NCBI GenBank assembly: GCA_963575745.1
Contig: CAUYUJ010000001.1
Location: forward strand, 558,001-622,000
DNA: 64,000 nt
Source of the DNA: Prorocentrum cordatum
Lineage: Eukaryota
Direction of reading: 5' to 3'
Notes under the pieces: model-generated
What the model was told of the DNA's origin: nothing
The model's input: the letters and a program-made list of their open reading frames with translations, nothing else
Databases searched by the model: none
Shown: positions 1 through 62,982 of the stretch, piece by piece
Numbering within the stretch: position 1 is the stretch's first letter
How the letters are laid out: each line of letters opens with the position of its first letter
Made by a program: the position numbers and the translations under genes

Positions 1-909
1 AGGCCCCAGGAGGCAACAGGAAGCGCCAGGAGGCCTCGGAAGGCAACAGGAGGCCCCGAGAGGCCCCAGGAGCAGGAGGCCTCAGAAGGCAACAGGAGTG
101 GCTCCAATCCCATGTGTTTTACGTATGCTCCTATCGATTGGGCCTCACCTGGAGCACGATTCTTTGATGTTCTACGTATGTTTCTATAGATGGTCCTTCT
201 CCTGTGTACACAATCCTAAATGTTTTACTCATGTTCCTATGTATTGGGCCTCTCCTGGGGCACGAGTCCTTGGTGTTTTACGCGTGTTCCTATAGATTGC
301 CCTTCTCCTGTGGCTCTAATCCGCAATGTTTTATGTACGTCTGTTGCTATAGATTGCGCCTCTCCTGGGGCACGAAACCTTCCTAGGAGGTCCCAGGAGG
401 TCCCAAGAGGCTCCTGGAGACCCCAGGAAGCCCCAGTAGGTTTCAGGAGGCCCCAGGAGGCCCCAGGCTCATGCACAGAGACGCGCTCGTACTACTGAGG
501 CTCATTCACACTCCAATTCATTCGCAGTTAGATTGATGTCCAGACCGTCACAACTGAAGCCCGTTAATATTCGAAAGCTCTTGCGCCTAGACATTCACGG
601 CGGACAGGTCCATGCGAGTAGATGCACATATGGGGAGCTCCACGCAGTGAATAATTACTTGGACGCCTCCTACTCCTCCTCCTTCCTCCTCTTGCCCCCT
701 ACTCATACTCAGACTTACTCACACTCAGACATACTCATACACAGACTTACTCATACACAGACTTGCTCACACCCAGACGTACTCATACACAGACTCACTC
801 ATACCCAGACTTACTCATACACAGTATTAGTCATACTCAGACTTACTCATACCCAGACGTACACATACACAGAATCATACTCAGACTTACTCATACCCAG
901 CGGATTGTG

Positions 910-1400
910 AGGCGCTGGTTTCAGCACCCCTAAGGGGAGCCGCCAGGGGTGTTTGCACGGGCTCGTTCGCGGCCATTTTGTGGGGATGTCTCAGGCGGTT
1001 TGCTTGTTTCTGGGCCCAACATCCTTCGCTTTCGGAGCAGATTTGGAGGATGTCTCAGGCGGGGCGCTGGTTTCAGCACCCCTAAGGGGAGCCGCCAGGG
1101 GTGTTTGCACGGGCTCGTTCGCGGCCATTTTGTGGGGATGTCTCAGGCGGTTTGCTTGTTTCTGGGCCCAACATCCTTCGCTTTCGGAGCAGATTTGGAG
1201 GATGTCTCGAGCGAGGCGCTCATTTCAGCACCCCTAAGGGGAGCCGCCAGGGGTGGTTGCACGGGCTCGTTCGCGGCCATTTTGTGGGGATGTCTCAGGC
1301 GGTTTGCTTGTTTCTGGGCCCAACATCCTTCGCTTTCGGAGCAGATTTGGAGGATGTCTCGAGCGAGACGCTCATTTTCACCCCCCAGGTGGGCCAGATT
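910..1400. repeat. 152-bp subrepeat array in macrosatellite unit 1 (about 3 copies)
   Basis: TTTCAGCACCCCTAAGGGGAGCCGCCAGGGG recurs with period 152; the spurious ORFs start at 949, 1101 and 1253. Confidence 0.9.
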
Positions 1401-2469
1401 TTGAGGATGTCTCGATCGGTTTGCTTGTTTTGGTGGCCAGGCTCGTGGGCGCAGATTCTTCTCAGGATGCCACAGGAGGCTCCAACAGGCTCCAGGAGGC
1501 CCCAGGAGACCACATGAGGTCCCAGGAGGCATCAGGAGGCCACAGAAAGACTCAAGAGGCCACAGGATGTCCCAAGAGGCTCCAGGAGGCCCCAGGAAGC
1601 TCCAGAAGGCCTCAGGAAACCACAGGAGGCCCCAGGAGGCAACAGGAAACGCCAGGAGGCCTCGGAAGGCAACAGGAGGCCCCGAGAGGCCCCAGGAGCA
1701 GGAGGCCTCAGAAGGCAACAGGAGTGGCTCCAATCCCATGTGTTTTACGTATGCTCCTATCGATTGGGCCTCACCTGGAGCACGATTCTTTGATGTTCTA
1801 CGTATGTTTCTATAGATGGTCCTTCTCCTGTGTACACAATCCTAAATGTTTTACTCATGTTCCTATGTATTGGGCCTCTCCTGGGGCACGAGTCCTTGGT
1901 GTTTTACGCGTGTTCCTATAGATTGCCCTTCTCCTGTGGCTCTAATCCGCAATGTTTTATGTACGTCTGTTGCTTTCCTGGGGCACGAAACCTTCCTAGG
2001 AGGTCCCAGGAGGTCCCAAGAGGCTCCTGGAGACCCCAGGAAGCCCCAGTAGGTTTCAGGAGGCCCCAGGAGGCCCCAGGCTCATGCACAGAGACGCGCT
2101 CGTACTACTGAGGCTCATTCACACTCCAATTCATTCGCAGTTAGATTGATGTCCAGACCGTCACAACTGAAGCCCGTTAATATTCGAAAGCTCTTGCGCC
2201 TAGACATTCACGGCGGACAGGTCCATGCGAGTAGATGCACATATGGGGAGCTCCACGCAGTGAATAATTATTACTTGGACTCCTCCTACTCCTCCTCCTT
2301 TCTCCTCCTCTTTTCTCCTCCCCTCCTGTCGGACATACTCAGACTTGCTCACACACAGACTTACTCATACTCAGACTTACTCATACTCAGACCTACTCAT
2401 ACTCAGACTTACTCACACTCAGGCATACTCATATACAGACTTACTCATACACAGACTTACTCATACACA

Positions 2470-3135
2470 GATTTGGAGGATGTCTCGAGCGAGGCGCTCA
2501 TTTCAGCACCCCTAAGGGGAGCCGCCAGGGGTGGTTGCACGGGCTCGTTCGCGGCCATTTTGTGGGGATGTCTCAGGCGGTTTGCCTGTTTCTGGGCCCA
2601 ACATCCTTCGCTTTCGGAGCAGATTTGGAGGATGTCTCGAGCGAGGCGCTCATTTCAGCACCCCTAAGGGGAGCCGCCAGGGGTGGTTGCACGGGCTCGT
2701 TCGCGGCCATTTTGTGGGGATGTCTCAGGCGGTTTGCCTGTTTCTGGGCCCAACATCCTTCGCTTTCGGAGCAGATTTGGAGGATGTCTCGAGCGAGGCG
2801 CTCATTTCAGCACCCCTAAGGGGAGCCGCCAGGGGTGGTTGCACGGGCTCGTTCGCGGCCATTTTGTGGGGATGTCTCAGGCGGTTTGCTGCTTGTTTCT
2901 GGGCCCAACATCCTTCGCTTTCGGAGCAGATTTGGAGGATGTCTCGAGCGAGGCGCTCATTTCAGCACCCCTAAGGGGAGCCGCCAGGGGTGTTTGCACG
3001 GGCTCGTTCGCGGCCATTTTGTGGGGATGTCTCAGGCGGTTTGCTTGTTTCTGGGCCCAACATCCTTCGCTTTCGGAGCAGATTTGGAGGATGTCTCGAG
3101 CGAGGCGCTCATTTTCACCCCCCAGGTGGGCCAGA
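2470..3135. repeat. 152-bp subrepeat array in macrosatellite unit 2 (about 4 copies)
   Basis: Same unit; the spurious ORFs start at 2531, 2683, 2835 and 2990 (one 3-bp insertion). Confidence 0.9.
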
Positions 3136-4007
3136 TTTTGAGGATGTCTCGATCGGTTTGCTTGTTTTGGTGGCCAGGCTCGTGGGCGCAGATTCTTCTC
3201 AGGATGCCACAGGAGGCTCCAACAGGCTCCAGGAGGCCCCAGGAGACCACATGAGGTCCCAGGAGGCATCAGGAGGCCACAGAAAGACTCAAGAGGCCAC
3301 AGGATGTCCCAAGAGGCTCCAGGAGGCCCCAGGAAGCTCCAGAAGGCTTCAGGAAACCACAGGAGGCCCCAGGAGGCAACAGGAAGCGCCAGGAGGCCTC
3401 GGAAGGCAACAGGAGGCCCCGAGAGGCCCCAGGAGCAGGAGGCCTCAGAAGGCAACAGGAGTGGCTCCAATCCCATGTGTTTTACGTATGCTCCTATCGA
3501 TTGGGCCTCACCTGGAGCACGATTCTTTGATGTTCTACGTATGTTTCTATAGATGGTCCTTCTCCTGTGTACACAATCCTAAATGTTTTACTCATGTTCC
3601 TATGTATTGGGCCTCTCCTGGGGCACGAGTCCTTGGTGTTTTACGCGTGTTCCTATAGATTGCCCTTCTCCTGTGGCTCTAATCCGCAATGTTTTATGTA
3701 CGTCTGTTGCTATAGATTGCGCCTCTCCTGGGGCACGAAACCTTCCTAGGAGGTCCCAGGAGGTCCCAAGAGGCTCCTGGAGACCCCAGGAAGCCCCAGT
3801 AGGTTTCAGGAGGCCCCAGGAGGCCCCAGGCTCATGCACAGAGACGCGCTCGTACTACTGAGGCTCATTCACACTCCAATTCATTCGCAGTTAGATTGAT
3901 GTCCAGACCGTCACAACTGAAGCCCGTTAATATTCGAAAGCTCTTGCGCCTAGACATTCACGGCGGACAGGTCCATGCGAGTAGATGCACATATGGGGAA
4001 CTCCACG

Positions 4008-4039
<32 letters not shown>

Positions 4040-4051
4040 TTTTCTCTCTCT

Positions 4052-4134
4052 TGATTCTGACACCCTCCTCCGTGCACCCATTTTGGCTCAAGATGGAAAA
4101 GAGATATCTTGTCCATCGACATACTATCTCATCA
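4052..4134 (+). repeat. 5' LTR of copia-1 (83 bp)
   Basis: TGATTCTGAC...ATCTCATCA, identical to 11263-11345. Contains CCATTTTGGCTCAAG, the last 15 nt of DinoSL. Confidence 0.97.
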
Positions 4135-4146
4135 TGGTAGCGTGAG
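4135..4146 (+). promoter_or_regulatory. Primer-binding site, tRNA 3'-end type, initiator-Met-like
   Basis: TGGTAGCG directly follows the LTR. TGG complements CCA, and TGGTAGC matches the usual iMet-type PBS start. Confidence 0.8.
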
Positions 4147-4575
4147 CTGGCCACTCACTGCTGCCGACCCACCAGGGCCTCGGCGCGCCCGCGGGCGCCA
4201 CGGCGAGCTGGCAAGAGGCTCGAGGCTGGAAGAGGGCGGCATCGGCCGCACCGAGCTCGGCAGCGGCCGAGCAACCGGCAGGGGCCGGGAGGAGTCAACC
4301 GGCAGGGGCCGGGAAGAGTGGCCGCAGGCGCGGCAAGAGGAGCGACGAGGCGATCGAGACCAGGCGCAAGCAGCTCCAGTTCAAGCACGACTTGAGGGAG
4401 ACGGGCAACAAGCTTCACCACCTCGCGTACATCGAGGACCATCCGTCGGAGAACTCATCGGACGCTGTTGAGAGAACGCAGAAGGAAGTCCTAGGCCGGA
4501 TTACGGACCTCGAACGCACGAGGCAAGAGATAGCAGAGAGCCGGGAGGAGCTCGCCAAGAGACACGCTGTCAAAC

Positions 4576-6522
4576 ATGGACGAGCAGATTCGGCAGCAGT
4601 TCGAACTGCTGAGGCAGGAGTTCGCGGCTCAAATAGGTCAGGCAGCCGACGAGATGAGGAGGCTGGAGAACGAGAATCAGCGTCTTCAGCAGCAGGTGGC
4701 AGGAGGCCTCGCGGCAATCCCGCAGGCGATCGAGCGGATGGGCGAGCAGATCAGAGGCGCGACGAGCGCGGGTGGAGCCGTTCAAGGTCTCGTAGACACC
4801 AAGGGGATCGGCAAGCCCACGACGCTGGGCGACGACCAAGAGAAGTTCGGCGCTTGGAATCGCAAGATGGAGAACTACGTGATCGGCGTGTACGGAGAGA
4901 GTTTTCGCCCTGTTCTTCGGTGGGCAGCCGAAGCCGAACGCCCCGTGACGATAGAGGGAGCTCGGGCGGTGCACGACGGAGTTCCAGAGCTGGAGACCAA
5001 GGTCAACCAGCTGTACGCGGCGCTGATCAGCACGACGGCGGACGGCAGCGAGAGCAACGACCTCGTGACGGGCGCCCCCGACGGGAACGGTCTCGAAGCC
5101 TGGCGGAAGCTCCACCGCAGGTGGGATCCGACGACAGGCCCGAGGAAGAGGCTGATCCTGAGGTCGATCATCTCGCCTCCGAAGTGCAGCGCGGACGAGC
5201 TGGGGTCCGCCTTAGAGAAGTGGATCCAGCAGATAGGCAGGTACGAACGCCGCCAAGGAGAAGATGGTCTGGCCGAGCTGCCGGAGGATATCAAGATGGC
5301 GGCCCTCGAGATGCTCGTGCCTCAGGACATCGAGAACCACCTCGTACTCAACAAGCATCGGCTCGTAACGTTCCAGGACAGTCTGAACGAGGTAATGACG
5401 ATCGTAGAGGCTCGGACCGGCGTGAAGATCAAGGAGCCATCGATCCGTGCGCGGGCGCATCATCCGGACGACATGGACGTCGGATCGTTCGGAGCCCCGA
5501 AAGGCAAAGGCAAAGGCAAGGGCAAGGACGGCAAGAGCAAAGGGAAAGGCAAGACTCAGGAGCCGAAGGGGAAGAGCAAATCGACGAACGGATCATACTC
5601 AGGCTCCCGCACATCCCCGACGGGTTCGGGCCGTGGTTCAGGGCACACGGCACCTCGAAGCACCAGCGGGCGCTTCGACGGCTACTGTCGGAACTGCGAG
5701 AGATGGGGCCACAAGGCATCCGACTGCTGGAGGAAAGAGCAGGGATCGAGTACGAGGGCTGGAACTGGATCCGCAACGGGGGCAAGCGCTGGTGGTAAAG
5801 TCGGTAGCCGCGGCGGCAAGGCCGGCGGCAAGGCGGCAGGCAGCCTGGAGGAGGAGCCTGAAGCGGAGGTCGCCGCTCTGGACATGGGCAGCTTGGACTG
5901 CCTGGAGCTCGCCAGCGGCAGCGGCCGCGGCGTAGCGGCGGTCGACCTCTCCCCCTTCGCGCAGGACGACTGGATGAAGTTCAACTGGGACAGCGGTGCA
6001 GCTATCTCAGCATTCCCTCGGAGCTTCGCGCCGCCGACGGGGATGAAGGGCAACGGCAGCACGTATCGTACGGCCAGTGGTGAGCTCGTCCCGGACGAGG
6101 GCAGCTTGCAGCTCAAGGCGGAGGACGAGTACGGAGTGCTACGAGCGCTCAAGGGACGCGTGACGAACGTGCACAAGCCGTTGATCTCGGTGGGGCAGGC
6201 AGCAGGAGCTGGACAGTGTTCATTCCTGGGCCGCAATGGCGGCTGGATATTCCACGAGAAGAGCCCAATCGGCAAGCGCGTGGTAGGCATGCTCGAGAAG
6301 GAGGCGAAGGCGGCGAAGCACCAGATGCTGCCGGTCTATCGCGAGCAGGGCGTCTACAACTTCTACCTCAAGAAGGGCCAACATGGCTCGGTTGCTCCTC
6401 TCGAGGAGGGACTTTCGGCGAAGTCGAAGTCCGAGCTGGTGGAGCTCCTCAGCGGCAAGTCGAAGGAGGAGCTGCTGGAGATCCTCGAGAAGACAGTCCC
6501 CAGGAGGCAGCCCTCGGCGTAA
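4576..6522 (+). CDS. gag: Gag-protease of copia-1 (648 aa)
   Basis: N-terminal coiled coil; capsid-like GLEAWRKL; CCHC-type knuckle CRNCERWGHKASDC; aspartic protease WDSGAAIS. Confidence 0.92.
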   Translation: MDEQIRQQFELLRQEFAAQIGQAADEMRRLENENQRLQQQVAGGLAAIPQAIERMGEQIRGATSAGGAVQGLVDTKGIGKPTTLGDDQEKFGAWNRKMENYVIGVYGESFRPVLRWAAEAERPVTIEGARAVHDGVPELETKVNQLYAALISTTADGSESNDLVTGAPDGNGLEAWRKLHRRWDPTTGPRKRLILRSIISPPKCSADELGSALEKWIQQIGRYERRQGEDGLAELPEDIKMAALEMLVPQDIENHLVLNKHRLVTFQDSLNEVMTIVEARTGVKIKEPSIRARAHHPDDMDVGSFGAPKGKGKGKGKDGKSKGKGKTQEPKGKSKSTNGSYSGSRTSPTGSGRGSGHTAPRSTSGRFDGYCRNCERWGHKASDCWRKEQGSSTRAGTGSATGASAGGKVGSRGGKAGGKAAGSLEEEPEAEVAALDMGSLDCLELASGSGRGVAAVDLSPFAQDDWMKFNWDSGAAISAFPRSFAPPTGMKGNGSTYRTASGELVPDEGSLQLKAEDEYGVLRALKGRVTNVHKPLISVGQAAGAGQCSFLGRNGGWIFHEKSPIGKRVVGMLEKEAKAAKHQMLPVYREQGVYNFYLKKGQHGSVAPLEEGLSAKSKSELVELLSGKSKEELLEILEKTVPRRQPSA

Positions 6523-9500
6523 GTCCACTGGAAGACTCAATACCACGGCCCCCTGCGGCATTGGCTGCGGGGGCGGCAGCGGCGGGGTCGGGACCTTCTG
6601 ACGTGAGACCGCCGGGTTTTCAGCCAGCGGCAGCGGCCGCGGCCGACGCTTTGCCAGCTGCTCCTGATGGACAGCAGGCCGACGAGGGCGAGGAGGAGGC
6701 TCGCCCGAGGGTGCTGAAGGCACCTCATGAGCCCTCTCAGAGAGAGATCGCTGAACACGAGGCGATGGGACACGCGACTTATCGCAGCTGGTGTCGCGTG
6801 TGTATTGCGGCAAAGGGCCAAGGCCAGCCGCATCTCCGCGCACCGGAGGACGACGAGACGGCGGTGCCGGTGGTCTCGTCCGACTACGCCTTCATGGGCC
6901 AGGAAGACGCGGACACCATGCCGATGCTGGTCCTTAGGGATCGGCGCTCGAAGATGATGGCAGCGACATTCGTGGAGAAGAAGGGCGACGACGCCTACGC
7001 CATCAAATTCTTCGCACGCTTCTTACGGATCCTGGGCTACAGGAAGATCGTCAACAAGTCTGACGGCGAGCCAGCGATCCTGCTGGTCAAGAGGCGTGCG
7101 GTGGAGGAGGTTCCTGGCCTCGAGGCCATTCCCCAGGAATCGGCACCGGCAGATCATCAGGCCAATGGGGAGATCGAGGTCACGGTGCGCGAGATTAAGA
7201 AGCAGGTGCGGGCGCTCAAGATGGACCTGGAGTCCAAGCTGGGCGTCAAGGTGGAGGACAAGCACCCGGTGCTAGCGCACCTGCCGGAGCACGCCGCATC
7301 GGTGATCAACCGATACCGGCGCGGCCAGGATGGCAAGACCGCTCTTCAGCGGCTCACGGGACGGCAGTGGAGGAAGCCGGTCCCGCTCTTCGGTGAACGC
7401 CTGATGGTGCGGTTCGCCGGGGAGCGCGCGAGGAAGAACGCGCTGGAGGAGCAGATGGTGGAGGCTCGCTACATCGGCCACCACCCGCGCGACGGCTCGA
7501 TGATGGTCATCACGAGCGACGGTGCGAAGAAGGCGGTCGGCTTTCGCAGCCTGCCGCAGAGCGAGAAGTGGATCACGGCGGGCTGGGATGGCCTGAAGGG
7601 CCTGCCGTGGGACGTGGCTCCGCGTGCGGCAAGCGCGCCGCGGGCCATCGTCGGACCTGGAGAGGTCGGTCCGCCACCAATTGTGGTGGCGCCGCCGCAG
7701 CCGCAGGCGCCGAGGAGGATGTACGTCCTCAAGGCGGACATCGAGCGGCTGGGCGCAACGCCGGGATGCCCAGGGTGCGTCTCGATCGCCAAGCACGGCA
7801 AGGTGCTGGCTGGCCATGCGCACAACGCGGTGTGCAGCAAGAGAATCTTCGAAGCGCTGGACGCTGAGGAGGCAGGCCGGGAGAGGACCGGCCAGTATCG
7901 AGAGCGGAGGCAGGGCCAAGAGGCCAGAGTCCGACCAGCGGCAGCGGCCGCGGCAGGGACCCCTCCGCCGAAGACGGCTCGGAGGATCACCGAGCCGGTG
8001 GCAGCGGCGGCGGCGGCATCGGCCGCGCCGGCCGCGACCCGATCGGCAGCAGCGCCAGCCGCGGCAGCTGCAGCGGCGCGCATGCGAGAGAGCCAGCCGG
8101 TAGCATCGGGCTCCGGCGTGGCGGCTCCTTCAGGAAGAGCGAGCTCCAGTTCGGGAGCAGTGCGAGCGGCAGAGGCCGCCGAGGATGTCGACATGACCGC
8201 GACCAGGTCGCGGCTGAAGCGCTTGGCGGAGGTGGCACCGGATGACGTGCCGGAGGCCCTCGAGCGCGGTGATCCACAGCCGGCAGACGTGCCGGTACCG
8301 GTGGACATGGAGGATCTCGCGGCGCAGCCGGCGCCAGCGGAAGGACCTCAGCTGCCAGCTGGAGTGGCAGTCGTGTGGAACGCCAGTGAGGGGGGGCACA
8401 TGCGGGTGCTCGCCCTCGATGTGGCATCGATCGAGCTGGTTGAGCTCGGAGTGCTGACGAGAGCGAAGGCGGAGTTGCTCCCGCTCGTTCGCGAACAGGT
8501 CAGCGGCCATTGGGCCAGCGTCGGCGTGGACATCGCCGACGAAGAGGTGGACAGCATCGCCCTATCGGCGTTGCAGCTGGGCGCCGTGGACGTGGCCGAG
8601 GTGTACTCGCCACATCGGTTCTCGGCTCGGGCAGCGGAATTTCAGCTGCGCCCGGGCTTCGCGGCGGACCTAGAGGAACTCAAGGAGGACGGGACGCCGT
8701 GGGACTTGCGGCGCCCCGAGGATGTCAAGGAGCTCGAGAAGCAGCAGGAGCGGATGGATCCCATCCTGCTCACGGGGTCCCCTCCATGCGAGAGGTTCAG
8801 CTTGCTGAGGGGCCTGAGCGCCAGGTTCAGGACCGATGAGCAGGAGGCGGCTGAGATGGAGGAGGCCAGACACCACCTGAAGGTGGCGGTCGACGCCTAC
8901 TGGCGTCAGCTCAGGAAGCCAGGCAGGTACTTCCTGCATGAGCATCCCTGGAGCGCGCGATCGTGGAATGAGGACATCGTCAAGGAGCTGGTCGCGCATC
9001 CAGGAGTCTTCGCGGTCAAAGGCCCCATGTGTCGGTGGGGCATGAAGCTCGCGAACCCACGCAGTGGCCAGGAGGAGTTCGTGCGCAAGGAGACCGGATG
9101 GGTCACCAACCATCCAGGCTTAGCCCGGAGGCTGCAGGGCACTTGCAGCAATGTGGACGGACGCGCGGAGTGGCATCGCCACATCACACTCGTGGGCGGC
9201 ATCGCGCGGTTCGCGAAGGTCTATCCACCGAAGTTGGTGGAGGCGGTGCTGGAGGAGCTCAAGGACACGCTGAATGACGTGGGGGAGCTCAGCACCGCCC
9301 AGGTGCAGCAGTCGGGCCCAGTCCCTGTGGACGCGGCAGTGCCGCCCGGGGACTGGACGAGTTACTGGGACGACGTCAATGGCGGCTACCTGGAGGCGGG
9401 CCTTGTGGCCCAGGCTCGCGCGGTCGAGCGCGAGTGGGTCAAGAAGCAGGAGCTGATCGAGATCGTCCCGAGGTCTCAAGCTTTCGCCGAGACTGGGCGT

Positions 9501-11063
9501 CCGCCCATCCCACTCAAGTGGGTCGACACGAACAAGGGTGACGCGGAGAGGCCCAACTACAGGAGCAGGCTCGTAGTGAAGGAGATCAAGGCGAAGAAGC
9601 GCCCTGACGAGCAGCTGGAGGCGTCCGAGGTCTTCTCGGCCATGCCTCCTCTGGAGGCCATGCGGTCGCTGGTCTCGCTGATGGTCACGTGGACGCGGGA
9701 AGCACCGCTCCACATTCAGGAGTCGCTTCGCAAGAAGGGCAGGAAGCCGGGCAACTTCAAGATCGGCTTCTTCGACATCAGCAGGGCGCACTTCTATGGG
9801 AAGGCGCAGCGGCGGATCTTCGTGGAACTGGAGGAGGAGAGTCGCAAGGAGTACGGCGAGGACAAGTGTGGCTTACTCCTCAAGTCCTGGTACGGCACGC
9901 AGGACGCCAGCAAGATCTGGCAGGGCGACTACACGGAGCTGTTGGAGGAAAACGGATACAAGGCGGGCATGTCGTGCCCAGCGGTCTTCTACAAGAAGGT
10001 GGACGAGACGAGACTGCTGGGGCACGGCGACGACTTCGCGGTGCTGGCTCAGCAGCAGGACATCGACAGCTTCGAGGCCACGCTGGGAAAGAAGTACGAG
10101 TTCAAGAAGACTGCGAACCTCGGCTTCGACGAGGGCGATGACAAGCAGGCGGTCTTCCTGAATCGGGTCATCGAGGTCAGTGCGGGAGTTCCGCCTGGCG
10201 GTGGCCGGCCCTGCCGGCATGCGATGATCGAGCCGGACAAGCGGCACGCGGAGATCGTGATCGACGAGTTGGGTCTCAGCAAGGCCAACGGCGTGGACAC
10301 GCCGACGGAGAAGCGTAGCGCCGACAAGCAGATGATGGATGCGAAGTCGGCGGCGTTGGGAGCAGCGGAAGCTTCGCGCTTCCGATCCCTCACCATGAGG
10401 GTGGCCTATCTGTCTCAGGACAGGCTGGACTTGGCAGAGGCATCAAAGACGCTCGCTAGGTCCATGCAGACGCCGACGGAGGCGAGTTGGCTCATGCTCA
10501 AGAGGGTTGGCCGCTACCTCAAGCGGCATCCTAGCACGGTGACGGTTTTCACGGAGCAGAAGATGTTCGACAAGATCCGGGTGTACGTGGACTCCGATCA
10601 TGCGGGCTGCGCGGTCACCCGGAAGAGCACCGGAGGCTTCGTGGCGATGCTGGGGCATCATGTCATCAAGCATGGCAGTAATCTGCAGTCGACGGTCTCT
10701 TTGAGCAGCGGGGAGAGCGAGTACTACGCCCTGGTGAAGGGCGGGAGCGTGGGCCTGGGCCTTCACAGCCTCTTCGCGGACTGGGGGCTGGACCTGAAGG
10801 TGGAGCTCGCCTCAGATTCATCGGCGGCCCGGGGCCACGTCCAACGGCGAGGTCTCGGGAAGATGCGGCATGTTCAATTTCGATACTTGTGGATCCAGGA
10901 GCGTGTGGGTAAGGGCGATCTCTCGATCGCCGCGGTTCCTGGTAAGAACAACGTCGCGGACGTGCTGACCAAGAGCGTGGGTGGATCCCTTTTGAGGAGA
11001 CACATGGCGACGCTCAACATCTGGGATCGGACACCGAGTTCGACTCAGAAGGACTTCAAGTGA
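6216..11063 (+). CDS. pol: Pol of copia-1: integrase, DNMT-like domain, RT, RNase H (-1 frame relative to gag; true start probably by frameshift near 6500)
   Basis: Integrase HEAMGH..WCRVC plus DDE (SDYAF, SDGEP, NGEIE); GSPPC/HEHP/RKET/YPP domain; RT KWVD, RSRLVVKE, DISRAHF, YGTQDA, HGDDF; RNase H DSDHAGC, SSGESEYY, SDSSAA, NVADVLTK. Confidence 0.95.
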   Translation: MFIPGPQWRLDIPREEPNRQARGRHAREGGEGGEAPDAAGLSRAGRLQLLPQEGPTWLGCSSRGGTFGEVEVRAGGAPQRQVEGGAAGDPREDSPQEAALGVSPLEDSIPRPPAALAAGAAAAGSGPSDVRPPGFQPAAAAAADALPAAPDGQQADEGEEEARPRVLKAPHEPSQREIAEHEAMGHATYRSWCRVCIAAKGQGQPHLRAPEDDETAVPVVSSDYAFMGQEDADTMPMLVLRDRRSKMMAATFVEKKGDDAYAIKFFARFLRILGYRKIVNKSDGEPAILLVKRRAVEEVPGLEAIPQESAPADHQANGEIEVTVREIKKQVRALKMDLESKLGVKVEDKHPVLAHLPEHAASVINRYRRGQDGKTALQRLTGRQWRKPVPLFGERLMVRFAGERARKNALEEQMVEARYIGHHPRDGSMMVITSDGAKKAVGFRSLPQSEKWITAGWDGLKGLPWDVAPRAASAPRAIVGPGEVGPPPIVVAPPQPQAPRRMYVLKADIERLGATPGCPGCVSIAKHGKVLAGHAHNAVCSKRIFEALDAEEAGRERTGQYRERRQGQEARVRPAAAAAAGTPPPKTARRITEPVAAAAAASAAPAATRSAAAPAAAAAAARMRESQPVASGSGVAAPSGRASSSSGAVRAAEAAEDVDMTATRSRLKRLAEVAPDDVPEALERGDPQPADVPVPVDMEDLAAQPAPAEGPQLPAGVAVVWNASEGGHMRVLALDVASIELVELGVLTRAKAELLPLVREQVSGHWASVGVDIADEEVDSIALSALQLGAVDVAEVYSPHRFSARAAEFQLRPGFAADLEELKEDGTPWDLRRPEDVKELEKQQERMDPILLTGSPPCERFSLLRGLSARFRTDEQEAAEMEEARHHLKVAVDAYWRQLRKPGRYFLHEHPWSARSWNEDIVKELVAHPGVFAVKGPMCRWGMKLANPRSGQEEFVRKETGWVTNHPGLARRLQGTCSNVDGRAEWHRHITLVGGIARFAKVYPPKLVEAVLEELKDTLNDVGELSTAQVQQSGPVPVDAAVPPGDWTSYWDDVNGGYLEAGLVAQARAVEREWVKKQELIEIVPRSQAFAETGRPPIPLKWVDTNKGDAERPNYRSRLVVKEIKAKKRPDEQLEASEVFSAMPPLEAMRSLVSLMVTWTREAPLHIQESLRKKGRKPGNFKIGFFDISRAHFYGKAQRRIFVELEEESRKEYGEDKCGLLLKSWYGTQDASKIWQGDYTELLEENGYKAGMSCPAVFYKKVDETRLLGHGDDFAVLAQQQDIDSFEATLGKKYEFKKTANLGFDEGDDKQAVFLNRVIEVSAGVPPGGGRPCRHAMIEPDKRHAEIVIDELGLSKANGVDTPTEKRSADKQMMDAKSAALGAAEASRFRSLTMRVAYLSQDRLDLAEASKTLARSMQTPTEASWLMLKRVGRYLKRHPSTVTVFTEQKMFDKIRVYVDSDHAGCAVTRKSTGGFVAMLGHHVIKHGSNLQSTVSLSSGESEYYALVKGGSVGLGLHSLFADWGLDLKVELASDSSAARGHVQRRGLGKMRHVQFRYLWIQERVGKGDLSIAAVPGKNNVADVLTKSVGGSLLRRHMATLNIWDRTPSSTQKDFK

Positions 11064-11253
11064 TGGAGTGGATCGAATCCATGCTCCGCTACCTGTGGGG
11101 CTGGATGAGGTTCCGCCGGCTGCGGTATGATCGCGCCGGACGGAGTGAGGGGCTCGCGGCATGGCCGCAGCCTAGCTGATGAGATGGGCGCGTCGGCTTG
11201 GGCGCGCCCGCGTACGACGTAGGTCGTGCCTGGCCGGGTTGGCGGCCAGGCTC

Positions 11254-11262
11254 GAGGAGGAG
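11254..11262 (+). promoter_or_regulatory. Polypurine tract of copia-1
   Basis: GAGGAGGAG abuts the TG of the 3' LTR. Confidence 0.85.
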
Positions 11263-11345
11263 TGATTCTGACACCCTCCTCCGTGCACCCATTTTGGCTC
11301 AAGATGGAAAAGAGATATCTTGTCCATCGACATACTATCTCATCA
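11263..11345 (+). repeat. 3' LTR of copia-1 (83 bp)
   Basis: Base-for-base identical to 4052-4134. Confidence 0.97.
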
Positions 11346-11924
11346 TCTCTCTCTCTCTCTCCCCCCTCTCTCTCTCGGGGGGGGGGGGAAGGGCGGTCCC
11401 CGGCACTCAGGGGGCAACCAGGCCCGGGCAGGGCAGCTGGCGGCGGCTCCCTGGTGCCCAACCACACCGGCGGCCCGCGCGGGACAGGAATGCCAGAGAA
11501 TTAATTATCAATTAATACAGCACTCGGAAGAGCAAGGGGAGGGGGAAGCGGGAGGAGCGACCCCCCGGAGGGGGGGGAGGAAGGGGCACGGGACGGGGGG
11601 CGGACGGCAAGCGGTGGTCGAGGTGGTGGTCGTGGTAGCCGTCGTGGGCGTGGGGGCGGTGGTCGTAGTTGTGATCGTGGTGGTCATGGAGGTCGTGGTG
11701 GTCGAGGTGGCAGCGGTCGTTGTCGTCGTGGTCGCTCGCGGTGGTCGCAGAGGTCGTGGCGGTCGGCGAGCGTAGTGGTGGTGGGCGGGATTGCAGTAGT
11801 GGTCGTGGGGCGGCGGTCGTGGTGGTGGCCGTGGTTGTCGTAGTGGGCATGGGCGGGCGTGCTAGTAGTCGTCGTGGAAGTGGCGGTGGTCGCGTCGGAG
11901 CTTGTGGTCGTGGCGGTGGGTTGC

Positions 11925-14558: not shown

Positions 14559-14801
14559 AACCCTCGCTACAGAAGAAGAGTTATGGTTGATCCCCGCTTT
14601 TTGGCGCACATTGTATTTTTCAATTGAAATTCCCCTCCCGGCGCTCGCACCTCTTTTTTCTGATCAGGGGAAGTCCTGGGGCTCAAAGTGTGTTGTTCCC
14701 CCGGGTTGCAACAACAACAAACAATCATGTTAAGAGTGCTCGCTCTTATCTGCTCGCGCGTCAGTCACTATGCATATCCCAAACCCTGGATACCCGCCCT
14801 C

Positions 14802-14997
14802 TGTGTATGGAACCCGTGTAATACCCTCATATATACTCCTTATCCTTACCTCTCCCGCACCTGGCCGTTTGGGCTCAGGTACTGAGTTGGAGCGATCGTA
14901 CCTTGATCGCTTGGGAGGGAAAGATATCCATCTATCCCTCCATCTCTCTACCAACGGATCAGGGGTTCTGTACTCTTGTACTTCAACCCCATACACA
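14802..14997 (+). repeat. 5' LTR of giant copia (196 bp)
   Basis: TGTGTATGG...CCATACACA forms a perfect 9-bp terminal inverted repeat; matches 32583-32778. Confidence 0.97.
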
Positions 14998-15010
14998 GGT
15001 TATCAGCCCT
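14998..15010 (+). promoter_or_regulatory. Primer-binding site of half-tRNA (anticodon-arm) type
   Basis: GGTTATCAGCCCT follows the LTR and has no TGG. It is one mismatch from GGTTATGAGCCC, the complement of the iMet anticodon stem-loop used by Ty5 and Drosophila copia. Confidence 0.75.
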
Positions 15011-15453
15011 TTAACGCTCACCTTCACCGACTCGCCCGCGGTGACCTTGCATGCGAGCCCAATGGAGCCGCTTCGGCGCATGCGCCGTAAGGGTTCCATT
15101 GGGGCTTCGCGTCCAAGCTCTCCCACGGTGCGACGGCTCGGTGACGAGTTGGAGAGCATTAGTGCGGACTGTGTTGGTGTCCCCGATACCCCCCCCCCAG
15201 CTCCCGAGGACCCGAGGCGCGTCTAGCTGCTGAACTTCGCCGCAGCGCCGCCCGCGGGGGGACAGGAGAAGGAGTAGGAACAGGAAGGAAGGAGTTTCAC
15301 ACGCCGACCTTTGATCCTCCCTCCCCTTCCCCGTCGGGAGCAATCCCAACCGCGTCAGGCGAAAGCCTTACCGGTCTCGATACTCCAGGGCGCTTCCGCG
15401 CTAACCGCCGATGGACCTCAGGTGCTGGAACCCCCAGCCCTGCGACCGTCCCT

Positions 15454-18400
15454 GTGGCGGAGCACGTAGCTACCTTCGAGGAACTCAGTAGACCAGTGTC
15501 GGCACAGCCACAGACGCGGTACCCCAAGGTATCATCGGATGAGACATCACACACACATGGTCCGAGTCGCAGCTCGTCCGCGCGCAACCGCCGTGGAGCC
15601 CCAGGCCCATGCGGCGAGCGCAGGTCGAGCCCGCGTGCTGCCTCTCAGAGGCCATGCACTCCCCGCGACAGGGGACACAGGGAAGCTGACGCTCCCCACC
15701 TCTCCATCTCAGACGACCAGCCGGCGGAGACGTCCGCCGCAGGTGACATAGCTGAGCTCAGAGACCAGGTTGAAACCTTCGTGTCCAGCCAATACTCTGG
15801 ACTACTACAGAGCGTTCAGACGAACGCCACTGATACTGCAGCCATACGTCGCGATCTTGACGGCGCCTTAGGGATCATCGATTCCAGGATCGCCGAAGAT
15901 AGACGCATCATAGGAGAACTGCAGTACCAGGTTGATCGTGAGGTGTCACACTCAGGTGAACGAACGGCGATGGTCGAGAACCTGCGCAACTCTCTCGCGC
16001 AGATGGAGCAACAACTTGTGATCGTACGCGACACAGGCATTTCTGCGGTCAGGGTTTTACACGATGAGATCCACGACCAGCTCCGTAACCGACCAACCCC
16101 AACCGAGGCCACAGACCTCGGCGACGTTCAGTCTCAGATCAATGATCTTCGATCTTACCTAGACCACACTACGGCGACGCTTCGTGCCGAAGCACACACA
16201 AACTCGTCGAACCTGATCGACATGTTGCAGCGTACTGAGAGAGTCATCACTCAAAGGCTTGATGCGACCAACGCTGTCGTGCAGCCACTCGCTAACCGGA
16301 TCTCTGACATAGAGCAGCGTTTCCCTGGTGTACAGGACGCCCTGGCAGAGTTGCGTGTCGGACGAGCCCAGACTGATCAGCTGGATTCTCCTCCCACGGT
16401 TTACGATTTCGCCCGCCTCACTGACAGGTTGCAGGAGGTTGAGAAGGCGGCGGACCACACGCAGTTAGAGCTCTCCCAGGTTATTCATGAAAGAGATACT
16501 GAGAAGGTACGTGTTGAGAGTTATCTCGCACGACTGGAAAGCGAGGTGGAGGCACAAAGCGCCCGTCTCCGAGCATGCGAGCAACGACTTGATCGGTATT
16601 CCCAACGGTCTCGGGATACTGATGAGTATACACGCCAAAAGGTGGGTCAAATACAAGAAGACATGACGAGCTGGACGAATCAGCTGATCGACCACACTAA
16701 CGACACCAACATTCACCTTCGACCTGCAGCCGACCCGCACAGGCCGACGGCAGTGTCCGCCGAAGCACCACAAGCTTCAGCAGGACAACAACGACGTACA
16801 TCTCCAGGAGCAGCCTCCGCGGCAGCTTCTGCACAGACACGCCATGTGTCTCCTGTGCGCACAGAACCAACCATCGACGGTGCACCGATACCCTCACAAC
16901 CAGTGTCTGCGGTGTCGGTACATACAACGACGCCTATCAAGGAGTCAGACACCGTTCGAGTACCTGTCTTGCCTAAGATCACGCAGCTGCTGGAGTGGCA
17001 GCAAAGAGTGCGAAAGAACTTCGGGGCCGCCTCAGGGCGACCATCCAAAGCATACGCCTTCCTATGCGTGGCAGAACAGCCCGAATGTACATTCGAGGAT
17101 TTACAAGACAGTGGAGACTTTGAGAGCATCGATTGCAAACTCGCAACCGCTCTGAGCGACATCTTATCCTCAGACTTACGCTACCAAATCAGGCTCATCG
17201 AGACCAGAGAGCACAAAGCAGGACGCATGCTCAAAGGACGCCAGATATACTGGCATATCCTACAGTCCTACAAAGTGACAGACGTCGACGACGACCTGCA
17301 CGATTTCGAGCGCCTTAAAGAACTGAGGATGAGAGACGAAGATTTGCAACGTTTCATTACCGATTGGGACGCCTTACTCTTGGAATGCCGAGAAGTACCC
17401 GATCCAAAGATATTGGAATCGCTATTCCGCACACAGATTCGTAGACATGCATGGATGAAACAAGACATGTACGAGTACCAGCGCATGAAGATGAGCGACC
17501 CGAATCGTACCTACGGTTGGCTTCGACAGCGTGTCCTGGACATACTGGAGATTAAACAATTGGAGAAGAATCAAAACAAGCTACGGTACGAACACGAGAC
17601 ACGATCTCAGGTCAACGTGTGCGTTGCATGGAAGAAAGGCAATTGTCGCAATGGTGAACGGTGCAAGGCTTTACATACATATTCCAGGGATTGGAAGAAC
17701 AACAAATCTTCCAGAACATCAACGGCTGGTGGCAACCCCCGCCGTAGTATGTCCACTCCTGCGAATCACAAGAAGCCAGCATCAAGGCCATTCTGCTTCG
17801 ATTTTGCCAAGCGCAACACATGTACCAGAGGTGATAAGTGTAACTACCCGCACGTCGCACAGTGCAAGGATTTCGCACAGAACAAGTGCACAAAAGGCGA
17901 CAAATGCAAATACGCTCATCTCGCACCTGGTGCAAAGACTCCTGAACGAAGCCCGAGTCGACCACGGACTTCCAGCCAGGACAGCCGTGGCCGATCACCA
18001 TCCCGCGGATCAGGAAGCCAACGGTCTTCACAACGCGGGGGGTTTCGCTACGCAAGCGATTCACGACAGGGACGTGACAACCGACGCCAATACGACCGAT
18101 CCCGTTCGACATCCAGGAGGTCCCAAGACTCTCGCAGCCAATCGAGAAGTCGTTACGACAGATCTTCGAGATCTACCTCCCGAGGACGAGACAATCGTGG
18201 CGGCGGACGTGGCAGTCCACGCGGCCGTGATCGATCATATGGCAGTGACAAAGGACGTGGCAAGCGGTATCCGAGCCGCGGATCGTCCCGTGGTTCACCC
18301 AACACTAGAGCACGTTCTCCTGCCAACTTTAGACATTCACGCCGTTCAGACCGCAGCTACGTCATCCGCGACAAGACCCTCATGGCCAACACCAAGGCCA

Positions 18401-21400
18401 CAACGACATCTACCAAGATACGTCGTCGGATACGCTTCGACGTACGCAACGTGGACTACTATTTCCATACCATATCTGGCAGAGCCAGACTGGACAGGTG
18501 GAAAGAGCTGCCGAATGAGGGTGACATCGTCAAAGTACCAGATCCATTACCACAAAAATGGTGGGATGATAGTGCAGAGGCCTTACGAGAATGTCAAAAA
18601 GAGGCACAACTATGGTACGACGAACTGTACGACTACCGACACAACAAAGAGTCGGTGGCCACACCAACTGCGATCCGAAAGCATGACGACACTGTCAAGC
18701 AGTCATCAAAGACTGCCCAGACGACAACAACGACAAAGCAAGTCGACACTCCACGCTCGACTGCAGCATTGACAAGGTCTTGGGTTCTTGACAGTGGTTC
18801 TGCCCATCATATTCAGGGAAAACATGAACTTACGCAGACCGAGTCGGATCGCATATCTATTCGCGAAGAGCATATTCTGGAAACTGCAAATGGTGATCGT
18901 ACCGTCAACGAGCACTACGACATACGGCTACCCGAAGTTGGACTGCATAGTTCAGCCCTTGCTTTACCAGACTGCCCATCATTACTATCAGTTGGAAAAT
19001 TGATTGAGGTTGATGGCTTTCGACAGCTTTGGGATCCTGAGCTGGGCTACATGCTTCAGGATCCGGGGGGCCAATGGTATAAGATTCCAGTCAACAATCG
19101 AGTGCCAGAGTTACGACTCGACGACTTAACACGGATACCACCGCCACGTTTATGCACTTCGTCAGCACCCCGCCGTCGTCAGCGAAAGCGTTCATCCGCC
19201 CGCTGCAACGACACTTGTTGGTGCTGCAAAACTACAGAGCAACCAACCACTGCAGACGAGCTACGACCCCACACAGGGACCTGCCCCAAGAGACCACATG
19301 TCGGAGAGGGAGGAGGAGCACGGACCATCACGGTCGAAGAACCTCCCGACACACGCACAGACGAGCCCAGCGTGGACACAACCACCGACTCGCCTACGTC
19401 TCAGACGCAGTGTTCTCCTCCACAATGCGGGGGGTTCGATATAGCTCAAGCAGACAACGACATACCGACAGAGACACCCACGCGAACGCATCCAGACAAT
19501 GATCGAGTTCTGCCCAACAGACAAAAGAAACCGATCGATCCGATGCATTACATGACTCACAGCCCAAAACATCCTGACTGTGAGATCTGTTCTCGTACGA
19601 TGGCACAGAATGCCCCGTGTAGACGACAGCGCAAACCACATCCACCGGCAGACCCCACCGAAGAGGATAACGCCTACGAAGCTTTTGTCCCGAAGGAGTT
19701 CGGTGAAGCTCTAACTGCCGACCATATCGTACTGGCCAAAGACGATGCCGCGGACAAACATGGCGACAAATATGCACTTGTTGTCCTTGACAGATATACT
19801 GGCATCTTCATGGCCTACCCAGCGCTACACAAAGACGCAGCTACTACAAAGGCATCCTTTCAACAGTTCATCGCCGCTAACGATGAAGTGAAGCATATCT
19901 ACACAGACAACTCTGGAGAGCTTCAGAAAGCTTGCCGCCAACTGGGATGGAGACACGACACGAGTACGCCACATCGTCCACAGACAGATGGACTGATTGA
20001 GCGCGTTGTCAAAATTGTCATTCTTGGTACCAGAGCTGTGTTACATATGTCTGGTCTGGGACACGAATGGTGGAAAGAGGCCATGCAAGCCTTTTGCTGT
20101 GGACACAACTTTGTGCATGCATCCACGGGCGTCGCTGCCCTCAACGAGGAGCATGCAGAAAAGACAGCTCATGAAATAAGATTTGGCGAAAGCTTTCCTG
20201 GGCACTGCATACCATTCGGTGCTCGGATATTTTGGAAATGCCTCAACCCCGAGATTAACAACGAGACTGCAAAGTTTAAAGAAAATGCTCGGGAAGGGTT
20301 ATTCATGGGATACCACTTACACTCTGGTGGACGATGGTCAGGTGACTACCTTGTTTTGGACACGGCTACATACGCCAAGAATCCTGATGGTGATCTGTGT
20401 CATGTGCACAGAGTCAAAGACATCATCATTCCTGATGGCAAGTTCACCTACCCCGTGAAAGATGGTACTCTACGACATCATAACCCTGAGGCACACGACG
20501 AGGTGAAGGCATCTACTTCTCGCCCCTTGGGTGACAAGCCAATGCCTGATCCTCCACTTTCTTACCCTAAAGAATGGGATGATCCGTCTATGATGACGAC
20601 GGAAGATAACGCTATTGATACCCAGACATCGGCTTCTGGAGTTGCTGCGCCAGCGCCGGAGCCAGACTACTGGGAACAGCGTGGATATTGCGTCATCAGA
20701 CACATTCGTACCCCAAGAAAGAAACTATTCATCCCAACGGACGACGTCATGAATATACCGGTACCTGTTGACCAACTCGACGTGACACGAGATTTCAAAA
20801 CGACTTCTACTTTCGAAGGCGAAAGTAACTTCCGAGATGTTTGGGATGGTGTTAGCGCCAACGACCACAGGGAGCTAAGCGAGCCGTGGACAGGCACGAT
20901 ACAGTTCTATGAGCTTCCAAAAATAACGCCAGACGGCAAAATGGTGGTTCGTGGACGCGAGACACGCGTGCAGAATACTACACGTCCTGATCACGTTCTT
21001 CCCGAGCATTGGAAAACACTTTCCCGTGGACAGCAAAAGAAAGAGATCGATTACGCCAACGACGTTAAACGAGCCCGTGAAATTCGTGATCGTGCTGCAT
21101 TGAGAGTGTGGACAAGACAGGATAAACAGGTCAACAATTTCCGTACTACTACATCAGGCGGACCCACATGGAATACTGTGGAACGACGGATTACATACGA
21201 CACTGACAATGGCGACGTCATCCGCGACGAGAATGTCAAAGGCGTGACAAACAAAGAAATACTGTATGCCAAATTACCTGGTGGGCCACGTGACATTACC
21301 ACGGTACTATACTACCGTCAACTACCACAACAGCACGATGGAGAAGAACGTGCTTTGGTATTTGTGGATAATGAGGGAACCGACTTTGGGACTTTGAACC

Positions 21401-31500: not shown

Positions 31501-31837
31501 TGGCGACGCCGCTGCATCCAGCGCCTCAGGCGCGGAGGACTACATGCCCGCGATGCCGCGCGCCAAGAGAGCACGTACATATGATTACGCTGCTTACTGG
31601 CGCCACAATCTCGAGGACAGCGATTGGGGTCTTCGATGCTGGAGTTATTGCATCAAATGTTGGATCTACATTGCGATCAACAACGACGAGTATGTGTACA
31701 TCCAGGATATCACGTACAACGATTGGTTCCGCAACTGGATCCCGAGGACCACTTGGGAAACGTTTACGACAAGCTATGTGACGTACAACGGCCAGAGGGC
31801 GTGGGACCGCAGGTTCTACAAGGACGGCGACGCGTAG
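28571..31837 (+). CDS. Cargo region 2: unknown protein, same frame across TAG 29804, with a CxxC..CxxC ribbon and a Trp/Tyr-rich C-terminus
   Basis: ORFs 27782-29806 and 29807-31837 are contiguous in one frame; CNNC..CDIC lies near 30677-30745. Confidence 0.65.
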
Positions 31838-32571: not shown

Positions 32572-32582
32572 GGGACGGGGGG
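32572..32582 (+). promoter_or_regulatory. Polypurine tract of giant copia
   Basis: GGGACGGGGGG abuts the 3' LTR. Confidence 0.8.
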
Positions 32583-32778
32583 TGTGTATGGAACCCGTGT
32601 AATACCCTCATATATACTCCTTATCCTTACCTCTCCCGCACCTGGCCGTTTGGGCTCAGGTACTGAGTTGGAGCGATCGTACCTTGATCGCTTGGGAGGG
32701 AAAGATATCCATCTATCCCTCCATCTCTCTACCAACGGATCAGGGGTTCTGTACTCTTGTACTTCAACCCCATGCACA
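32583..32778 (+). repeat. 3' LTR of giant copia (196 bp)
   Basis: Identical to the 5' LTR except A14993 versus G32774. Confidence 0.97.
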
Positions 32779-62960: not shown

Positions 62961-62982
62961 TCCGTAGCCATTTTGGCTCAAG
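62961..62982 (+). other. Genomic copy of the complete dinoflagellate spliced leader (DinoSL)
   Basis: TCCGTAGCCATTTTGGCTCAAG matches DCCGTAGCCATTTTGGCTCAAG at 22/22. It is followed by ATG, not a GT donor, so it is a retro-integrated 5' end rather than an SL RNA gene. Confidence 0.95.

Follow-up and report, generated by a model that had tools for sequence, protein, structure and literature searches.

Dinoflagellate nuclear mRNAs receive a 22-nt leader by trans-splicing, and this should damage a long terminal repeat (LTR) retrotransposon, because it replaces the 5' R that is needed for minus-strand transfer. In the classical arrangement R is a short repeat at both RNA ends, between U3 and U5, which lets the minus-strand strong-stop DNA jump to the 3' end. 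How an LTR element copes with a host that exchanges this end for its own leader is the question raised by a Ty1/copia retrotransposon in a 64,000-nt stretch of the Prorocentrum cordatum genome (GenBank assembly GCA_963575745.1, contig CAUYUJ010000001.1, positions 558,001 to 622,000 of the forward strand; hereafter the window, with positions counted from its first letter). Both LTRs of this element (4052-11345) carry a block derived from the dinoflagellate spliced leader (DinoSL), and the 3' part of the leader recurs in the LTRs of very distant copia lineages.

The spliced-leader block of the 83-bp LTRs

The element is an intact Ty1/copia LTR retrotransposon with undisturbed open reading frames (ORFs) and identical LTRs. 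The direct repeat 4052-4135/11263-11346 is 100% identical; read as TG...CA, it gives LTRs of 83 bp, and the 84th common base is the T of the primer-binding site (PBS) on the 5' side and the T of the flank on the 3' side. A sequence-only reading of the window had reported that the two LTRs share a 24-mer, that it consists of the first 5 and the last 15 nt of DinoSL with AG changed to GCAC, and that an ATG follows. These observations hold exactly. The 24-mer TCCGTGCACCCATTTTGGCTCAAG occurs once per LTR (4069-4092 and 11280-11303), both times on the + strand, and matches leader positions 1-5, followed by GCAC in the place of AG and by positions 8-22 (15 + 5 nt exact). The comparison gives the same result with the canonical leader, DCCGUAGCCAUUUUGGCUCAAG (PMC5585692, PMC7245778), and with the full canonical relict TCCGTAGCCATTTTGGCTCAAG that lies at 62961-62982 in the window itself. 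Elsewhere in the window TCCGTGCACCCATTTTGGCTCAAG was not found, even when three mismatches were allowed, nor did it appear in 100 shuffles; the leader 15-mer has three occurrences in the window, which are the two LTRs and the canonical relict. The block thus holds at least 9 nt of exact leader, the search minimum of PMC5585692, and lies 5' of its unit on the sense strand, as DinoSL relicts do.

The LTR is laid out as 17 nt, the leader block, 4 nt, AAAAG, 33 nt and the PBS. In dinoflagellates trans-splice acceptors share an AG but no wider consensus, and AAAAG/C is the motif at the exact poly(A) site (PMC2488372). The last two bases of the block form the first AG of the LTR, and the 17-nt U3-like part ahead of it shows no recognisable promoter. 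The ATG is present at 4093 and 11304; it is not conserved, the bases after the block being different across all 10 aligned LTRs described below. Its use as a start codon was rejected, as it opens a frame of 15 codons that ends in the PBS.

Leader sequence in the LTRs of distant relatives

Relatives were collected by scanning genome contigs with an alignment of 24 pol proteins; 19 loci (L002-L020) were fetched on pol homology alone, with no criterion that involved the LTR. The 19 contigs are filed in records of bacterial metagenome-assembled genomes (MAGs; the titles name Chromatiales, Planctomycetota, Rickettsiales, an actinobacterium and others) and encode copia polyproteins of the dinoflagellate type. 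One MAG record alone holds six such contigs, and they look like eukaryote repeats that were binned into MAGs. Pairwise identity among the reverse transcriptase (RT) cores of the 19 loci is 26-76%; to the core of the element at 4052-11345 it is 36-50%. Five of them form a group at 65-76% (L004, L005, L009, L010, L014), to which L015 is ~53% identical; L016 and L019 pair at 59%, and several single lineages are at or below 50% to all others. Viral contigs (IMG/VR) gave no match to a 22-nt LTR pattern and no relative by alignment, and a protein scan of JGI metagenome contigs gave 132 pattern matches and no relative. The sole locus found by DNA pattern in the JGI contigs (L001) is an unrelated ORF and was discarded as a chance match.

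In the 154,307 nt of sequence from the relatives, the final 10 nt of the leader, TTGGCTCAAG, are found 7 times in sense and never in antisense orientation, against an expectation of 0.15 per strand. Exact matches of at least 10 nt to any part of the leader number 10 in sense and 0 in antisense (1.9 expected); LTR-candidate regions account for nine of them, and the tenth, in L011, falls within pol. The position of the matches was assessed from the PBS. At 12 junctions of the TGGTAGCGGAGC type, all outside the regions matched by pol, the best match to the last 11 nt of the leader was recorded within 260 nt upstream; two other PBS-pattern matches fall inside pol coding sequence and were not counted as junctions. 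All 11 positions matched at six junctions (L004, L009 twice, L010, L012, L014), 10/11 at one (L005), 9/11 at two (L007 and the second of L010), 8/11 at one (L015) and 7/11 at two (L016, L018). For comparison, 19,151 random 260-nt segments were drawn from these loci; 134 of them scored 10/11 or better, and 11/11 was never reached. The block lies 36-127 nt upstream of the PBS in the relatives and 42 nt upstream in the element at 4052-11345. In five records, 18 places with the 12-mer of the PBS were located, of which seven were already known; a leader-like block precedes three of the 11 further places (GGCTCAAG at 65 nt in L022, a 10/11 match at 247 nt in L023 and a degenerate 15-mer at 32 nt in L027). 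The comparison between LTR families that the sequence-only reading had proposed therefore gave a positive outcome: related as well as very distant copia LTRs hold the 3' part of the leader, in sense, at a fixed place before the PBS.

Some lineages hold other parts of the leader. The L016 junction has TCCGTAGCC (leader positions 1-9), followed by a degenerate tail, and the 3' regions of L013 and L003 have positions 2-14 and 4-16, respectively; the match in L019 is weak, and the 3' region of L017 has no leader part. Most LTRs of relatives are devoid of the 5' half of the leader altogether, and the element at 4052-11345 has the only LTR among those examined with both halves. The second LTR of L010 (9203-9224) contains two leader-like blocks in tandem, CCTGGCTCAAG and then TTTTGCTAAAG. 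The motif GCACC upstream of the T-run recurs in L005 and in the second copia element of the window (see below). At positions 39-100 of L005, GCACCTTTTGGAGT is repeated upstream of the block, which recalls the GCACC before the T-run in both window elements. In two relatives GGCTCCGCTACC, the reverse complement of the PBS of the family, is found shortly after the end of pol (L003, ~5243-5258; L017, ~2470-2485); it could pair one RNA end with the other, or it may be the copy of a tRNA end.

Conservation around the block

Ten LTRs were aligned on the AG of the block and scored by the fraction of the top base in each column. The 11 leader columns gave a fraction of 0.95, as against 0.46 for the flanks (34 columns before and 30 after the block). 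The consensus of the alignment is TTTGGCTCAAG and nothing else, and conservation stops exactly at the last base of the leader. Within the block GGCTCAAG is invariant; conservation is lowest in the T-run, which has often lost its upstream half, and in eight of the nine aligned LTRs from relatives the leader match ends in or near this run.

The surroundings of the block share two further properties. Seven of the ten LTRs have an AAAA[GC] motif between the block and the PBS, which follows the block at 5-46 nt; the mean for the background is 1.18 per ten, and seven was reached in 0 of 5000 resamplings. In all ten LTRs the nearest AG before that of the block is 20-106 nt away (nine of those bases being the block itself), and only 16.4% of the AG-to-AG gaps in the background are of such length. 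As a proxy for U3 we took the stretch between the last purine run and the block, which measures 17-100 nt in seven LTRs and implies LTRs of ~80-220 bp. A U3 of this size leaves little room for a promoter and therefore fits formation of the 5' end by splicing. Overall, a 3' splice acceptor would come first in this layout, then a short R, a poly(A) site, U5 and the PBS. A reading of the block as a leader-RNA gene or a splice donor was rejected, since GT follows AAG in none of the ten aligned LTRs.

A leader-like block in a second copia element

A second copia element of 18 kb occupies 14802-32778, with a clean duplication of CCCTC. It matches the Pfam families rve and RVT_2 and a CCCH zinc finger, and has in-frame stops at 21553, 22390 and 24349; long extra ORFs at 24352-31837 could not be assigned to a clear family. 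Its relation to the first element is very distant, and only the RNase H part aligns (29% identity, E 2e-5). Its 196-bp LTRs contain, in sense, the 16-mer GCCGTTTGGGCTCAGG, which agrees with the 3' end of the leader at 13 of 16 positions. Such a match was reached in 27 of 20,000 shuffles of the LTR, and among 652 tiles of 196 nt over the window it was reached by five, which correspond to both LTR pairs and the canonical relict. The length of the AG-free stretch upstream was equalled in 508 of 20,000 whole-LTR shuffles and in 1387 of 20,000 segment shuffles. The leader-like block of this element is suggestive, not strong. A TATATA lies ~30 nt upstream of it. Strict local alignment of the two LTR families of the window was not significant (the score was reached in 201 of 500 shuffles); a collinear alignment with cheap gaps was reached in 5 of 1000, and homology of the two families is not claimed.

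A model for the role of the leader, and its alternatives

The reading that we prefer, and to which we give an even chance, is that TCCGTGCACCCATTTTGGCTCAAG is a DNA copy of the host leader placed at the boundary of U3 and R, and that the genomic RNA is trans-spliced at its AG, so that the leader becomes part of R. Like host mRNAs, the genomic RNA of the element would receive the 22-nt leader, with the AG at 4091-4092 as the acceptor. Because the leader itself ends in AG, the acceptor of the encoded copy would restore the same sequence on splicing: the true leader would be swapped in for the encoded one, leaving the RNA's 5' end nearly the same as the DNA, with ...TAGCCATTTTGGCTCAAG joined to ATGGAAAA. 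Transcription of the 3' LTR would pass through its own block and continue to the AAAAG shortly downstream, where the poly(A) site would lie. Both RNA ends would then share the 3' part of the leader plus ATGGAAAA, and this would be the R repeat for the transfer of minus-strand strong-stop DNA. Since, in the established replication model, the R of both daughter LTRs derives from the RNA's 5' end, a trans-spliced element must acquire the leader in its LTRs. Each round of reverse transcription would recopy the 3' part of the leader from the spliced 5' end and so keep it perfect, and this renewal would explain perfect 11- to 15-mers amid LTR flanks that cannot be aligned. Upstream of the transfer point, TCCGTGCAC and the 17-nt U3 would come from the 3' LTR; that the strand jump takes place at the weak rU:dA stretch is speculation. 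Trans-splicing at the AG of the block, the RNA ends, the boundaries of R and the course of the transfer are what we infer from the layout.

Two suggestions of the sequence-only reading bear on this model. Its leader-like R region ending in AG agrees with the edge of the block at the AG, the AG-free zone upstream and the AAAAG/C downstream; the R boundaries and the trans-splicing, for their part, keep the conditional standing given above. The idea that loss of the internal AG of the leader removes an acceptor that would trim the block is weakly supported. The 83-bp LTR indeed has no such AG, but L003, L013 and L016 keep GTAGCC, and the general loss of the 5' half in the relatives makes the claim weakly testable. 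Relicts in transcripts start with CCA, possibly since the internal AG serves as a splice site (PMC6616646).

Several points weigh against the model. Strong-stop DNA completed to the 5' end of the leader should leave TAGCC in the daughter LTRs, and these have TGCACCC; the model therefore needs a transfer before the end of the leader is reached, which is assumed. The same AG in the 3' LTR could be spliced as well, which would cut the genomic RNA. In the 83-bp LTR taken alone the AG-free stretch is not significant, as 2931 of 20,000 shuffles of the whole LTR reach that length. The block is absent or weak at the junctions or 3' regions of L015, L017, L018 and L019, and eight of the 11 further places with the PBS 12-mer have no leader-like block, two of these being rRNA-like and not all 11 necessarily copia junctions. 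The LTR boundaries of the relatives are deduced from purine tracts and the PBS rather than from paired copies. Finally, the ten aligned LTRs were picked by the motif and six of them (L004, L005, L009 twice, L010a, L014) belong to one group, so they do not represent ten independent events; for this reason the informative points are the sharp edge at the last base of the leader and the dissimilar flanks.

If transcription started at or just upstream of the block, the leader would be encoded in cis and the RNA would not be trans-spliced; by looking like a host mRNA, the transcript could be better translated, more stable or hidden from surveillance. A report cited in PMC9651163 describes viral transcripts that begin with DinoSL, which is read there as molecular mimicry, and a gene is described with a genomic leader copy at the exact splice site, from which a leader-bearing message is possible without splicing (PMC2488372). 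The TATATA upstream of the block in the second element also speaks for a start in cis, as does the persistence of the GCAC variant in both LTRs, which is what a DNA-encoded 5' end predicts. We nevertheless judge a cis-encoded leader unlikely: most relatives keep only the last 10-12 nt, which makes a poor mimic of a 22-nt leader with its cap end gone, the edge that is conserved lies 3', at the AG, whereas in a mimic the start should matter, and the U3-like part is 17 nt long with no recognisable promoter. The T-run has been given another role: TTT(T/G) from leader relicts was proposed as a promoter motif upstream of retrogenes (PMC5585692; repeated in PMC9651163), and the TTTT/TTTG of the block could accordingly be the core promoter of the LTR in place of a TATA box. 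That the T-run is the least conserved part of a block in which GGCTCAAG is invariant makes this decidedly unlikely; in the 83-bp LTR, moreover, AAAAG follows only 5 nt after the block, and with transcription beginning ~30 nt downstream of the T-run no R would be left.

The block might also be a passive scar, in that trans-spliced RNA drags pieces of the leader into the LTRs, where they play no role and decay until the next capture. The various parts kept by different lineages (L013 2-14, L003 4-16, L016 1-9, the others 11/12/13-22), the degenerate versions in L007, L015, L027 and the second window element, and the tandem blocks in the second LTR of L010, which resemble the stacked relicts of recycled mRNAs, are in line with such a history. 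It is improbable in our estimate, as the block keeps one place, one orientation and perfect 11-mers where RT cores are ~40% identical and LTR flanks cannot be aligned. A leader that is copied into an LTR ends up in both LTRs and is thereby part of R, so that pure neutrality is hard to separate from the trans-splicing model. For a chance resemblance of some unrelated LTR motif to the leader, nothing speaks beyond the shortness of the shared core, which is 10-11 nt. The 15 + 5 leader bases in the element at 4052-11345, the other leader parts of 9-13 nt in L003, L013 and L016, the excess of 10 sense over 0 antisense matches and the restriction of the source-named pol proteins to dinoflagellates render it hardly credible.

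Extended to the whole group, the trans-splicing model would describe a clade of dinoflagellate copia elements without a promoter-bearing LTR: an LTR of 80-220 bp would consist of a splice acceptor and a poly(A) site, the RNA would come from host read-through with its 5' end formed by trans-splicing at an AG that the LTR encodes, and the first half of R would be the host leader's 3' part, recopied from the host in each cycle. We regard this extension as possible and lean somewhat against it.

The element and its surroundings

The features of the window are collected in Table 1. The PBS TGGTAGCGTGAGC adjoins the 5' LTR and may be of the type used with initiator tRNA-Met, as in Ty1. The gag-like ORF matched no Pfam family below E 0.01. 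In pol the RT corresponds to RVT_2 (PF07727; E 1.5e-11, 44.8 bits against a cut-off of 31.6); the integrase-like part has no match to Pfam rve and shows an H-x4-H...C-x2-C motif near residue 228, and the homologs at 95-98% identity are named 'Integrase catalytic domain-containing protein' in UniRef. About 20 proteins at 95-98% identity to pol carry the name Prorocentrum cordatum at NCBI. For relatives at 36-53% identity the source names are Amphidinium, Symbiodinium and Durusdinium, and all proteins with a named source are from dinoflagellates. Contigs from four of four public runs (X1, X2, X3 and X6; DNA, or of unrecorded kind) cover all 30 bins of 3600-11800 at 85-99% likeness and point to variant LTRs, through a joint at 11310 as well as a loose end in X2. 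With its identical LTRs, open ORFs, ~20 close proteins and coverage in all four runs, the element at 4052-11345 is a young member of a multi-copy family.

Table 1. Coordinates of the copia elements, their leader-derived blocks and the canonical leader relict in the window.
Feature	Position	Strand	Remarks
5' LTR, 83 bp, TG...CA	4052..4134	+	100% identity to 11263-11345
Spliced-leader-derived block, 5' LTR	4069..4092	+	its final two bases form the LTR's first AG
U3-like part, 17 nt, pyrimidine-rich, AG-free	4052..4068	+	inferred from the positions of the purine tract and the leader block
AAAAG, candidate poly(A)-site motif	4097..4101	+	putative R/U5 boundary; motif of PMC2488372
Primer-binding site TGGTAGCGTGAGC	4135..4147	+	adjoins the 5' LTR; relatives have TGGTAGCGGAGC at the equivalent place
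gag-protease ORF	4534..6522	+	zinc knuckle CX2CX4HX4C, DSGA motif
pol ORF, 1659 aa	6084..11063	+	overlaps the gag-like ORF; integrase-like N-terminal part, DNMT-like domain, RVT_2, RNase H part
DNMT-like domain (predicted fold), 330 aa	8391..9383	+	pol residues 770-1100, between integrase and RT; conserved in 131 copia pol homologs
Polypurine tract GAGGAGGAG	11254..11262	+	adjoins the 3' LTR
3' LTR, 83 bp	11263..11345	+	direct repeat of the 5' LTR
Spliced-leader-derived block, 3' LTR	11280..11303	+	exact copy of the block in the 5' LTR
Possible 5-bp target-site duplication TCTCT	4047..4051 and 11346..11350		surrounded by CT repeat, so weak evidence
5' LTR of second copia element, 196 bp	14802..14997	+	target-site duplication CCCTC at 14797-14801 and 32779-32783
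3' LTR of second copia element, 196 bp	32583..32778	+	one mismatch to the 5' copy
Leader-like 16-mer GCCGTTTGGGCTCAGG, second element	14864-14879 and 32645-32660	+	sense; 13/16 to the 3' end of the leader; contains the first AG of the LTR
Full canonical DinoSL relict TCCGTAGCCATTTTGGCTCAAG	62961..62982	+	followed by ATG; leader reference within the window

Positions 1-4022 of the window hold three copies of a tandem unit of 1.6-1.75 kb, which itself contains periodic repeats of 10, 16 and 152 nt. The third copy breaks off at 4009 into T29 G T4 (CT)4, the insertion site of the copia element. A tandem repeat of 188 nt, with about six copies that are up to 100% identical, lies in GC-rich surroundings at 33556-34651. 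LINE-like ORFs with weak matches to Exo_endo_phos, RNase_H and RVT_1 are present at 45114-54240 on the + strand, the same strand as both copia elements and the DinoSL relict. This relict is preceded by a (CTC)n repeat and directly followed by an ATG and an open frame of more than 339 codons (62961-63999, +). The frame is of low complexity and matched no Pfam family, and the segment 62961-63999 looks like a retroposed transcript.

A DNA methyltransferase-like domain in pol

Between the integrase-like part and the RT, pol contains a domain with a predicted fold like that of DNA methyltransferases (DNMT). It has no Pfam match at E up to 1, DNA_methylase included, and no sequence match in the PDB. 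In an alignment of 24 sequences the invariant or nearly invariant columns include GSPPC and FLHEHP, which we tentatively assign, by eye, to motif IV (Pro-Cys) and motif VI (Glu-Asn-Val). An AlphaFold (AF2) model built from 26 sequences had a pLDDT of 85.5 and a pTM of 0.77. In Foldseek the top matches listed were all C5 DNA methyltransferases (best E 4.1e-5, TM 0.30-0.44); with VIA-align DNMT3A was matched at Z 11.9 and an rmsd of 4.2 over 187 residues, and 50 of 50 rows were C5 methyltransferases. The SAM-binding FxGxG of motif I was not found in the 24 sequences, whose consensus there is DVAEIYSPxR, with no glycines. As the glycine-rich SAM loop is missing, methyltransferase activity is not to be assumed. 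A 2018 account of Symbiodinium (PMC5890265) states that the Copia superfamily is without any DNMT domain.

Relation to known systems and significance

Slamovits and Keeling (2008) is said to be the original paper on relict DinoSL and the recycling of mRNA. Leader relicts before dinoflagellate retrogenes are well described (PMC5585692, PMC6050394, PMC12014239, PMC6616646). Like the LTR block, they are DNA copies of the leader that stem from trans-spliced RNA which was reverse-transcribed and integrated (PMC5585692, PMC6616646, PMC2488372), and their internal AG can be used as an acceptor (PMC6616646). The relicts of retrogenes, as described in these sources, occur once, 5' of a host gene, and decay, whereas an autonomous copia element carries the LTR block in both of its LTRs, and many lineages have it at a constant distance from the PBS, conserved to the final AG between flanks that are not. 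In retroviruses and other LTR elements R is wholly encoded by the element, from its own transcription start; here host RNA would supply part of it via trans-splicing.

Cer1, a Ty3/gypsy element of Caenorhabditis elegans, likewise lives in a trans-splicing host, which adds SL1, and has a spliced-leader acceptor inside the element (PMC3315495). Unlike what we propose for the copia element, its 8-kb genomic RNA has to bypass the site and escapes trans-splicing; SL1 is carried by a spliced RNA of 2.4 kb alone, and the available text of that paper describes no leader copy in the LTR. A positive-strand RNA virus of dinoflagellates (Levin et al. 2017, cited in PMC9651163) is, similarly, a parasite with the host leader at the 5' end of its RNA; it differs from the copia element in having no LTR, no reverse transcription and no requirement for strand transfer. 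The heat-activated Ty1-copia elements SmTCL1-4 of Symbiodinium microadriaticum (PMC5776459) resemble ours in being recently expanded and flanked by LTRs, with the integrase (an integrase-like part in ours) before the RT; the paper is silent on leader sequences in the LTRs and on RNA ends. Among open-access papers and preprints, supplements aside, none was found that places a spliced leader in an LTR or treats the leader as R. The leader tail at a fixed spot in the LTRs of distant copia lineages is akin to the leader relicts and to the R region of LTR elements, here on the scale of a clade.

A leader tail at the proposed U3/R boundary over deeply diverged lineages offers a concrete and testable answer to the problem of the 5' R in a trans-splicing host. 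In practice, the block is a signature by which copia LTRs can be found and oriented in dinoflagellate assemblies. Leader relicts counted as 'retrogenes' may include LTRs, and records of bacterial MAGs can contain eukaryote contigs of this kind. If these elements do form a clade whose LTRs are devoid of promoters, they would be natural reporters of trans-splicing, and they would likely be the reverse-transcription machinery behind the leader-tagged retrogenes of dinoflagellate genomes.

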